Source: Amoebidium appalachense
Lineage: Eukaryota; Protista; Ichthyosporea
DNA length: 64,000 nt
Direction of reading: 5' to 3'
Assembly (NCBI GenBank): GCA_963693365.1
Contig: CAVNZM010000001.1
Span: forward strand, 1,642,373-1,706,372
Within the stretch, counting starts at the first letter, position 1, and each line of letters opens with the position of its first letter. The position numbers and the translations under genes were made by a program. A model generated the notes under the pieces. It had not been told where the DNA came from and did no database searches. It was given only the letters and a program-made list of their open reading frames with translations. Shown here one piece after another: positions 20,901 to 23,900 of the stretch.

Positions 20901-23900
20901 TGTGTGTGTGTGTGTTGCATACCTGCAAAGAAGATTGAAGCGTGCTCCATGTGCACGGTGGGGGTGTGGGCAGCAGTCTGCACTGGCGCACCCGGGCATG
21001 TGCAGTGTCTATGTTATTGTTTTTTTGTTTTTTTTGTTTTTTTTTTTTTTTGGGGGGGGGGGGGGGGGGGGGGGGGGGGGGGGAGGGGGGGGGGGGGGGG
21101 GGGGGGGGGGGGGGGGGGGGGGGGACGGGGAGGGTTGGTGGTTAGTGGTGGTGGTGTTGGTGGTGGTGGTGGTGGTGGTGGTGGTGGGGGGGGGGTTATA
21201 ATGTCACAAGGGACATCCGCATATTTATACTGATGAAGGATTCGGTTATATGTTTTGTTTTTAACCTGTAGAGGACCGGACTAATGGATTCTACCGGCTC
21301 CCGGTTGGGACCTAAATAAACTCTATTGCGGCTCAAAATCACTATAAAAACCATAAATAAATTGTAAAGATCGACAGGTATGTGTCTTACCTACATATGT
21401 TTCTAGGCTGGTTTGGGCGAAATATTATTATTTCGTATACTTTTGTATCTGTTTCTGGAGTCACCTTCAAGCCGGCAAGCACCCTTTGTAGTTACACCAC
21501 ATACAAGGTATCGTTATTAGAATAAAGTTCAATTTTTTGCATAAGACGAAGTATAAGTGTATCTTCTAACCTCGTGCAACTTTTATTTGGCTAGTTCCTA
21601 TCAACTTCATGTTCACATTACAGCACAAACTTGGTCGTCTCCGTGCTGGTGACCTCGATCTGGATCTCATGAAATTTACGGTTCTCAAGAGGTTAACCAA
21701 ACATCGTGACGTACTCCAAAAAGAGATCGTTTTTGTTGAAATTTCGGGTATACATATTTCGGCTTTCCGGCCAGGATTTTCTTTTTCCCTTTACCTTCAT
21801 CTTGTATGTAATCGGCTTCTATGGCTTTGGCTACTCGCAATTGATCCATTGGGATTCTTGAACTGCCTTCGTAATTTAATTTGGTTATTGGGAAGATAAA
21901 GTTGGACTTATCGTCGTTTACCAACCACACCGACGGAGCACGAAAAAATGTGTGTGCGTGCGCGCACACAGCTAACCCTCATCCACACCTTGTCTCTCTC
22001 TCCCTCCACCCCCCCCCCCCCCCCCCCCCCCCACACACACACACTTTACCCCCTCCCAATCCCCCCCCCCCCCCCCCCCCCCCCCTGCCTACACACACAC
22101 ACACACACACACACACACACACACACACACACACACACACACACACACACAATCATCCCCACCCCCCAAAACACCCACACACACCCGCCACCACCCCACC
22201 CACCCACCAACCAACCCACCCAGACTAACACACAAAAAAAAAAAAGAAAAAAAAGAAAAGGAAAAAAAAGCAACAAAAAAAAAAGAAAAAAAAAGAACCG
22301 ACCCTGGCAGGACTCGAACCTACAATCTTCTGCTCCGAAGGCAGACGCCTTATCCATTAGGCCACAGGGCCGTCGATTCACATTGATGCACCAGCGAGTA
22401 CTGATCCCTGTATTACATACAAGAATGAAATGCTTGCGTATTCTCATGCACAGGATTCGAAGTAAATAACACGCAGACAGAAAACAACAGGAGCCCGTAT
22501 GAGATTTTATGCATTAACAAGCGACTTCTTATGAACATGTACATGCACCCCCCCCCCCGGGGGGGGGGGGGGGGGGGGGGGGGGGGGGGGGGGGGGGGGG
22601 GGGGGGGGGAGAAAGCGAGTAGAAAGAGAAGCCCGTATGAGATTTTATGCATTATCACGCGACTTATGAACATGTACATGCACCCCCGGGGGGGGAGGGA
22701 GGGGGGGGGGTTTGAATGCGTCAAAAAGTACGAAGCACACAAGAACAAACGGATAACACGATGCAGAATGCAAGCCATACATAAAGAGTATGTATAATAA
22801 GCAGAGCCCATCCTCAGGGGGGGCCCACGTCATCCACAGTACCCGAGTTTCGACCTATTCACCTCGTTACCGAAACCCAACTCAGATACTGTTTCACTTG
22901 AACATGGGTAGGTCACCCGTCTTGATCAGAGACGAGCAGGGTTACTTATGCAGGCAAGGGCAGTGGGAAAGGCCGGGGGTTCAGCAGTAAGCAGAAGCAA
23001 GAAAAATATAGATAGGAACTCAGGAGACGGGGCTTCTAGGAAGCGCCCCCGTCGCTACCTAAGCCGATACTTCCCAGGCTAACATACTACACCAGCTGAA
23101 AAGAATTAAGTCCCGAAGGCCGCAGAATTCGCAATCAGAGGGGGAAAACATGAGATTTGACCCGGGGGGGGAAAGGGAGGAGAAAGAGAAGCCCGTATGA
23201 GGTTTTATGCATTATCACGCCATTTCTTATGAACATGTACATGCACCCCCGGAGGGGGGGGGGGGGGGGGGGGGGGGGGGGGGGGGGGGGGGAAGCGAGG
23301 AGAAAGAGAGAGAGCAAGCGTGGGCAGAAACCTAAATAGAGTATAACATGAATGAAACCCTGAGATTTGAGTGTTGGCAAACCATACAACTACGAAGGAG
23401 AGAAATTAGGCAAAATAGGCAGGCAAAAGAAATACTGAAAGCGAGGTGGTACACAGTACAACACAACGTATACAGCATAGTCTAATGCTTTAGTCGGTAG
23501 AACACACCCTATAAGCACAATTTGGCTGACGAAAAAAGACACATGCAAGCATGTGTGCCTGCCTGTGTGCTTTCATGTGTGCATGCTGCCTTCGTGCATG
23601 TGCAAGTGGATGTGTATGCATATGTGCGCACGCCTCCACACGCACGCGCCTCTGCGCACGCGCGTGCATATATATATGTGTGTGTGTGTGCGTGCGTGTG
23701 TGTGTGTGTGTGTGTGTGTGTGTGTGTGTGTGTGTGTGTGTGTATGTGTTGGGGAAGAGGGGGAGGAGGGGGGGGGGGGGGATACGTACTTTTTGAACTG
23801 TTCGTCTGTGATTGCTGCAAGGGAGGACACAACAGTCCCCGCACCCACCACAACCACCTCCCCACGCTGCCTCTGTTTCTGCTCACACACACACACGTGT

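Follow-up and report, generated by a model that had tools for sequence, protein, structure and literature searches.

A dispersed repeat of Amoebidium appalachense with a probable hammerhead ribozyme core opened between A9 and G10.1

The window described here is a stretch of 64,000 nucleotides from Amoebidium appalachense (Ichthyosporea), taken from GenBank assembly GCA_963693365.1, contig CAVNZM010000001.1, positions 1,642,373 to 1,706,372 of the forward strand. The DNA is eukaryotic and rich in (C)n and (CA)n. Its minus strand holds pieces of a host Pus10 gene, and copies A to F, J and K of a short repeat lie between the Pus10 exons, in sense orientation. By BLAST, the window has about twelve sites with either the folded motif of this repeat or its tail, and two copies, A and B, carry it complete (Table 1). 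The RNA of the repeat appears to contain a hammerhead ribozyme core in a non-circular order, opened between core positions A9 and G10.1. It would likely cleave itself after GUU, and so process transcripts of a protein-less repeat that is likely copied by the reverse transcriptase (RT) of a Penelope-like element (PLE) of the Naiad/Chlamys type. The probability of this reading is put at roughly 0.7.

Copies A and B fold in the same way. Helices P1 and P2 close the RNA, and P3 is a hairpin. A long arm consists of an outer helix (helix O), a kink-turn (K-turn) and a long helix, while a pseudoknot joins strands far apart. A sequence-only reading of this DNA had described six structural elements, and all six are present on the minus strand. 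It was also right in proposing an RNA-level fold with K-turn and pseudoknot on a mobile repeat. A K-turn consists of a canonical stem, a 3-nt bulge, tandem G-A/A-G pairs and a second stem. This arrangement is found in copies A and B, and also in the majority of the J family, a third subfamily. Kinking, and binding of L7Ae/15.5K, would be expected of such a motif. Two helices needed adjustment. The arm helix written as CCCAUGU/ACGUGGG exists, but in a different register, as the K-turn consensus needs UCA/UGA with one bulged U. The helix given as 14 bp has 13; what was counted as the fourteenth pair are two hammerhead core bases, H17 and A14, facing each other. Missing from the six elements was a second pseudoknot, stem I, formed by GGG/CCC in copy A and GGAG/CUCC in copy B.

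Without constraints, RNAfold predicts four of these parts in both copies: P1, the hairpin, the arm and the long helix. In an unfitted MAFFT alignment of seven window copies, 91.1% of 146 cells pair, against 36-47% for control registers that were slid along the sequence. The claimed covariation holds up: 10 of the 48 pairs show changes on both sides (one in stem I, two in stem II, six in stem III, one in helix O), matched by 0 of 500 shuffles, which is no probability, since A and B themselves supplied the structure and the copies are related. G-U pairs make up 8 of 54 pairs in copy A and 4 of 46 in copy B. It is conceivable that all this is chance pairing in a decaying repeat. The folding z-scores are weak (copy A -0.43 on the minus strand versus 0.00 on the plus strand; copy B -2.00 versus -1.68), and one set of pairings drawn for copy J lay in unique flank. 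Covariation, the shuffle tests, and the family-letter prediction and matched-depth stem II swap described below have already largely refuted this idea, and its likelihood is negligible.

Rfam offers a hint as to what the fold might be. At the gathering score, the check that the sequence-only reading had proposed returns two tRNAs for the window and no family for the folded repeat. The sole ribozyme match is a fragment of Hammerhead_1, which at 14.2 bits (34 are needed) and an E-value of 3.6 is below that score. This weak match pairs the first pseudoknot as stem II, ahead of GAAAC, which prompted the placing of all hammerhead elements. In copies A and B the core is then complete, with the family core CUGA(G/U)GA, GAAA, GU-U, and stems I to III of 3, 6 and 13 bp in copy A and 4, 6 and 9 bp in copy B. 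C3 U4 G5 A6 N7 G8 A9 is found at 22817-22811 (A), 15936-15930 (B) and 14798-14792 (J), and also in copies D and E. G12 A13 A14 A15.1 follow C11.1, as the definition of a hammerhead requires. U16.1 pairs with A15.1, and H17 is unpaired and not G; the triplet is GUU in A and B, and the J-family majority agrees. Stem I of copy B has A-U where copy A has G-C.

The order of the strands is unusual. From the 5' end come the 5' strand of stem II, helix O, the K-turn, stem III, U16.1-H17, stem I, a linker and the 3' strand of stem II. These are followed by GAAA, stem III, the K-turn, helix O, the 3' strand of stem I and finally CUGAnGA. The opening in the core is flanked by P2 after A9 and by P3 before G10.1. 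The canonical nested order of types I to III (Rfam CL00010) is absent, as in neither A nor B is CUGAnGA followed by GAAA within 60 nt. The earlier reading did notice the hammerhead strings, but set a hammerhead aside; their flanks do pair, non-circularly, because stem I is now recognised. Where that reading proposed a possibly undescribed RNA fold, the RNA, judged from its sequence, is instead a new wiring of a known ribozyme, with a real fold and predicted cleavage. Twister and the hairpin ribozyme were also compared by eye with their consensus, and dropped for want of a matching core.

A descriptor of the permuted order was written from copies A and B and, by construction, matches these two alone within the window. 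Among shuffled sequences in which only the core strings were kept in place, a loose version was passed by 18 of 5000, and a strict one by 1 of 20000. None of 22 chance loci holding both core strings passed. Pattern scans outside the window returned 5 viral and 17 metagenome loci, all of them without the helices; the metagenome loci are bacterial-type coding DNA. A covariance model (R1) kept 22 pairs and gave 13 matches, of which 8 had E <0.01; six of those 8 were training copies.

Public sequencing runs (X1, X4, X8, X18 and X19, the last two perhaps RNA) provide contigs to compare with the repeat units. Unit A is matched by 7542 contigs in X1 and 5533 in X8. In X1, depth reaches about a million on the ribozyme versus 29-40 on unique stretches, where contig depth does not equal copy number. 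The ribozyme repeat is a high-copy family. Two positions of the A family, 22910 and 22856, have variants whose depths agree in three runs (38250 and 38524 in X1, 14387 and 14739 in X8, 1434 and 1424 in X19). This variation reads as a compensatory swap from U-A to C-G in stem II. Variants at 22907 and 22820 retain G-U wobbles.

Copy J itself has C at 16.1 and a disrupted GA in its K-turn. The defect at 16.1 was set down before the family was checked, and the family letter then came out as predicted: at 14864 the expected U makes up 99.7% of depth in X1, 99.4% in X4, and all of it in X18 and X19. At 14814, the K-turn A, the expected letter accounts for 99.8% in X1 and X4, and 48% in X19. Both defects are private to the copy in the window. 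J-family contigs continue into a B-like 5' part, with GACUC opposite GAGUC (X1, X4, X19). P1, P2, P3 and the stem II strand as drawn upstream of 14893 in copy J itself were discarded, this being unique flank where depth falls from 40414 to 70.

Table 1 Features of the ribozyme repeat and its host gene in the window. Paired strands are separated by a slash.
Feature	Position	Strand	Remarks
Copy A, complete permuted hammerhead with closing helices P1/P2 and hairpin P3	22797..22949	minus	predicted cut 22879/22878
P1, copy A	22949-22943/22803-22797	minus	7 bp
P2, copy A	22941-22939/22809-22807	minus	
Hairpin P3, copy A	22915..22937	minus	8 bp; immediately 5' of G10.1
Stem II 5' strand, copy A	22909..22914	minus	G10.1 = 22914; displaced to ribozyme front
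Stem II (first pseudoknot), copy A	22914-22909/22857-22852	minus	6 bp
Arm, copy A	22824..22908	minus	helix O, K-turn and stem III; K-turn by general consensus
Helix O, copy A	22908-22899/22832-22824	minus	9 bp
K-turn, copy A	bulge 22898-22896	minus	G22895, A22894, A22893 opposite G22835, G22834, A22833
Stem III (long helix), copy A	22892-22880/22848-22836	minus	13 bp
Block S, copy A	22876..22881	minus	G16.2 U16.1 U17 = 22881-22879 (U16.1 = 22880, H17 = U22879); stem I 5' strand 22878-22876
Linker from stem I to stem II, copy A	22858..22875	minus	18 nt, holds a 5-bp hairpin
Block G, copy A	22848..22857	minus	stem II 3' strand, C11.1 = 22852, G12 A13 A14 A15.1 = 22851-22848
Stem I 3' strand and core, copy A	22807..22820	minus	stem I 22820-22818, C3-A9 CUGAGGA 22817-22811, then P2 3' strand
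Stem I (second pseudoknot), copy A	22878-22876/22820-22818	minus	
Copy B, complete ribozyme of second subfamily	15916..16074	minus	G10.1 16038, C11.1 15971, U16.1 16003, H17 16002, C3 15936; predicted cut 16002/16001
Copy J, third subfamily, 5'-truncated	14681..14893	minus	CUGAUGA core, different stem III and arm; private changes 14864, 14814
Repeat unit A	22711..23163	minus	~450 nt, (C)n 3' end; longer 5' forms in some contigs
Repeat unit B	15800..16234	minus	~440 nt, (C)n 3' end
Copy C, 5'-truncated	25557..25754	minus	decayed core
Copy D, 5'-truncated	25352..25498	minus	directly behind C
Copy E, 5'-truncated	17821..17957	minus	
Copy F, 3' tail alone	19748..19847	minus	
Copy G, 3' part	51753..51865	plus	
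Copy K, 3' tail of B subfamily	18454..18525	minus	
Fragment H	62944..62974	minus	variant of stem II 5' strand and start of arm
Fragment I, decayed copy	1839..1890	minus	covariance model E 0.085
Fragment from 5' part of unit A	11633..11702	minus	
Host Pus10 gene pieces	13707..26914	minus	Pfam matches 26690-26986, 19761-19973, 13707-13913

The copies share a 3' end and are truncated at the 5' end. All nine of the window 3' ends checked lead into (C)n or C-rich/(CA)n sequence. Some contigs run on 5' of 23163. On either side of unit A (22486-22710 and 23164-23310, minus strand) lies a second short repeat, of which there are three copies; it shares a short motif with the 5' end of unit A, and is perhaps part of a longer element. 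Where the nearest host gene is known, the copies are sense to it: to Pus10 for those at 13707-26914 on the minus strand, and to a GATA-domain gene for the one at 51753-51865 on the plus strand. This orientation perhaps results from a strand bias of (C)n tracts.

Such ends and targets resemble those of certain PLEs. Craig et al. 2021 found Naiad and most Chlamys elements to lack canonical hammerheads, although some have halves of a hammerhead core ('HHR_half_core') 35-50 nt apart on either side, with no fold reported (PMC8557442). Chlamys elements insert into (CA)n and (C)n (PMC8557442). The repeat shares 5' truncation and a common 3' end with Naiad and Chlamys elements, and (C)n/(CA)n sites with Chlamys. 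It differs in its unit length of about 450 nt, and in that no RT or GIY-YIG open reading frame (ORF) was seen in the window frames, where Naiad/Chlamys PLEs have an ORF with N-terminal GIY-YIG, CxC and RT.

The last 300-350 nt of 40 Naiad consensuses, plus the motif passages of two octopus entries, were viewed by eye. Seven of these 42 end in the same split form: Bfor, Amil, Aacu, Anas, Plae and the two octopus entries, one of which is Ovul, flagged as half-core. Their stem II has 6 bp and their stem I 5-6 bp, apart from Bfor, where stem I has 2, and Aacu, which has one mismatch in each of the two stems. In all seven, P2 abuts A9 and P3 abuts G10.1. The octopus elements have the K-turn in reverse orientation, and the coral elements and Plae a plain bulge. 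Another 8 of the 42 end in an intact type-CSG hammerhead plus linking helix, namely 1-3_Nbra, Hcon, Hpol, Asuum and two entries assigned to Pristionchus from their place in the file. In the part viewed, the remaining 27 do not fit the fold. It may be inferred that the split form and types SGC and CSG all come from a single circular wiring that is opened at different points, something that copies in tandem would bring about.

Other Naiad ends hold motifs of their own. The bivalve elements CGi, Sglo, Olur, Tgra and Pmar have a different conserved, pairing-rich 3' motif without hammerhead strings (supplement of PMC8557442). Among ostracod and spider elements, the Dst entries have core strings and a helix directly after CUGACGA, and Sdum and Smim have core fragments at the edge of the view. 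These ends are possibly further permutations. By eye, the bivalve motif is reminiscent of hepatitis delta virus-like (HDV-like) ribozymes.

How an opened core might still work is a question of geometry. P2 and P3 may stack on each other and branch off sideways from a four-way junction, which would leave A9 sitting on G10.1. Helix O would be the 'interaction' helix of type-SGC ribozymes, here joined to stem III through the K-turn. A single molecule must also bring the tip of its arm back to its base, for which the arm would be too short as long as stem II stacks on stem III. The active form is therefore proposed to be a head-to-tail dimer, in which one copy docks its tip into the base of a second; if the hammerhead reading is right, the odds lean slightly towards such a dimer. 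Alternatively, stem II may fray. With a dimer, cutting would mainly take place in tandem or multimeric transcripts. Single intronic copies could rest as a non-cutting pseudoknot, or with CUGAGGA hidden, and this resting state would explain why they are tolerated in Pus10 introns. The likeness to P2 of the S-adenosylmethionine (SAM) riboswitch SAM-I, noted earlier, fails as a description of the fold, but may still describe the resting monomer. After cutting, monomers could form circles and be copied by reverse transcription into (C)n/(CA)n sites, a route that has been suggested for PLE hammerheads.

There are observations that weigh against a cleaving hammerhead of this kind. At 2.8 Å per pair, and with stems II and III stacked, closure of a monomer needs about 70 Å, where helix O offers about 31 Å in copy A, a crude estimate. 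By the same estimate, three animal split forms that were checked fall short, and five nematode CSG forms do not. Stem I has only 3-4 bp. P2 competes with a hairpin over CUGAGGA whose stability equals or exceeds its own (hairpin versus P2: copy A -46.8 versus -46.1, copy B -40.9 versus -37.2 kcal/mol, with pseudoknots left unscored). Among 154 positions of the A family, 14 are variable at 5% and none of these is among the 14 core positions, but as some 1.3 core variants are expected, their lack is weak evidence and not significant by itself. A B-family variant at 16033, with 39% of X1 depth, breaks the outer pair of stem II unless its partner changes (40 of 204 rows viewed).

The repeat itself also raises doubts. 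Support for tandem copies is thin, consisting of the C-D pair and one head-to-tail contig (X8); Naiad/Chlamys PLEs form partial tandem copies (pLTR). The predicted cut does not coincide with the 5' end of any of 8 truncated copies. Two complete copies lie sense in Pus10 introns, as would be expected if single copies cut slowly or not at all. None of 17 Chlamys ends viewed fits the fold. Pieces of RT or GIY-YIG are absent from the 163 window frames scanned (16 plus 147, the latter chosen from 288 by leaving out overlapping or repetitive-looking frames), so the link to PLEs rests on fold, ends and targets.

Several of these points would suit an RNA that does not cut at all. A scaffold derived from a hammerhead could use its K-turn and pseudoknot to bind a protein (of the L7Ae/15.5K family, or the RT of the element), marking the RNA for retrotransposition. 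Catalytic geometry out of reach of a monomer by the crude length estimate, a hairpin that hides the core, sense copies tolerated in Pus10 introns and truncation points that do not map to the cut all agree with this. Yet U16.1, H17, G10.1-C11.1, GAAA and CUGAnGA are kept while the helices turn over, and Naiads that do keep the core have the K-turn either turned round, as in octopus, or missing, as in corals and acanthocephalans. A pure scaffold is thus considered unlikely.

Much the same can be said of a type-SGC hammerhead of the usual kind, with its core unbroken but under the control of a switch. Its active stem II would use GGCUCU, two bases past A9, and be held off by the upstream GACC and P2. 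With this 2-nt insertion, the downstream strand pairs over 4 bp in copy A, 6 in B, 6 in J, and 5 in C and D. Eckert et al. allow 1-2 inserted bases (PMC10085705), and this register would ease the geometry of a monomer. It relies however on 1-3 G-U pairs, has no changes on both sides and fails in copy E, whereas the upstream register does show changes on both sides. Naiad_Amil, Naiad_Plae and the octopus entries have, by eye, no downstream partner beyond 2 bp. This version too is thought improbable.

Less probable by a good margin is that the repeat is some other K-turn RNA, such as a selenocysteine insertion sequence (SECIS), a box C/D small nucleolar RNA (snoRNA) or a SAM-I-like riboswitch, or an unrelated new class of ribozyme. 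GUGAA/GGAU with its 13-bp helix looks like a SECIS quartet, UGAUGA is present in copy B, and there is a match to sR47 of 10.5 bits with an E-value of 8.4. No Rfam family matches at gathering score, neither A nor J retains UGAUGA, and a hammerhead core accounts for all conserved unpaired bases. A SECIS has an apical AA after helix II and lies in the 3' UTR of a selenoprotein gene; here the apical AA is absent, the loop starts with UGG, and there is no ORF upstream. Checks for a family-model match, a SAM pocket or terminal C and D boxes found none of these, against a SAM-I riboswitch or box C/D snoRNA.

The window contains more than this repeat. At 15145-15520 is an element of about 370 nt that resembles a miniature inverted-repeat transposable element (MITE), with long terminal inverted repeats; it is moderately repeated, with an X1 depth of 400-1500 versus 30-40. 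A tRNA-Arg(UCG) at 22299-22371 (minus) shares its Pus10 intron with copy A; tRNA-Met is at 5237-5309 (minus). An intronless polysaccharide lyase 14 gene at 54110-55042 (minus) consists of two in-frame pieces with one stop codon between them. A calcipressin exon of the host is identical to a protein present only in EukProt, and the next-best matches of that protein are an entry labelled Opistho-2 (38%) and named animal proteins (29-37%), a weak sign that the host is a unicellular opisthokont; a search with the Pus10 exons gave no match. Open frames without Pfam match are found at 4716-5165 minus (150 codons), 32300-32896 minus (199) and 58947-60383 plus (479).

The literature, where subscription papers mostly fell outside the search, yielded no description of a hammerhead whose core is split or that has a K-turn, nor any of Naiads with permuted hammerheads. 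The passages of PMC10162972 contain no split-core-type variant. PMC13725137 cites Weinberg 2015 (PMC4509812) among variants 'containing additional helices', which could lower the novelty.

With this in mind, a wider interpretation is offered tentatively, as something rather less probable than the hammerhead core itself. A core that has its break between A9 and G10.1, and is put together again around a four-way junction, may be a seventh natural wiring of the hammerhead. The K-turn would close an obligate head-to-tail dimer, which means that the RNA would count its own copies and cut tandem transcripts only. It would be one of the circular permutants (split, CSG) of a knotted ancestor carried on Naiad-type retroelements, here in what is likely a non-animal eukaryote. 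If true, the fold would date to before animals. The hammerhead reading by itself would already break a stated rule, that block C is uninterruptible. Non-circularly permuted ribozymes, so far from environmental contigs only, would be placed in thousands of genomic copies, and there would be an answer to why Naiad elements seemed to be without hammerheads. Designers of ribozyme switches would gain new handles in the hinge formed by the K-turn and in a core site that tolerates a helix. The split-core form would be missed by every hammerhead descriptor now in use.

K-turns are not new. The one here has the 3-nt bulge and tandem G-A/A-G of Kt-7, box C/D and SAM-I P2; its third pair is A-G in copy A and the J family, and U-U in copy B. 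Unlike known K-turns it would bend a hammerhead stem III arm, with no SAM pocket and no guide sequence.

The repeat can also be compared with other mobile ribozymes. Like PLE minimal type-I hammerheads and non-long terminal repeat (non-LTR) retrozymes, it has a hammerhead in a short, non-autonomous, probably PLE-linked repeat and an insertion between 9 and 10.1 (PMC4209133; PMC6765202; bioRxiv 10.64898/2026.07.22.740005). PLE hammerheads habitually have an extra base at that place and work as dimers (PMC4209133), and their cutting is slow and dimer-dependent (PMC4209133; PMC6765202), as is proposed for the repeat. They and the retrozymes however are of type I, in canonical order with a short stem III, and mostly tandem. 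A non-LTR retrozyme has a type I hammerhead per tandem unit, and the repeat is not of type I and is mostly dispersed.

The closest resemblance in wiring is to the type-SGC and type-CSG hammerheads (HRIMA-1 and variants) of Eckert et al. 2023, which cleave in vitro, and were known to these authors from metatranscriptomes and metagenomes only (PMC10085705). In type SGC an extra helix joins extensions of stems I and II, and the authors note as a puzzle that the end of this linking helix is tied to the end of stem III; they also note a geometric difficulty for some SGC RNAs (PMC10085705). They assume CUGAnGA and its flanking paired strands, together block C, to be inseparable, apart from the 1-2 bases that may be inserted (PMC10085705). 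The words 'kink' and 'K-turn' occur 0 times in the supplement of that paper. The ribozyme of the repeat shares with type SGC the block order S, G, C, all core bases, and stems I to III that mutually cross. As in types SGC and CSG there is a linking helix, the 9-bp helix O, and its end is tied to that of stem III. The differences are that helix O and stem III are joined through a K-turn on both strands, that P1, P2 and P3 are added, that the linker has 18-21 nt versus about 3, and that the RNA sits in a eukaryotic genomic repeat, not in environmental contigs. Block C is split between A9 and G10.1, where type SGC has at most 2 nt; the covarying strand of stem II lies upstream, although a weaker unbroken register exists. 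Going by its letters, the RNA of this repeat is best described as the SGC circle re-opened between A9 and G10.1.

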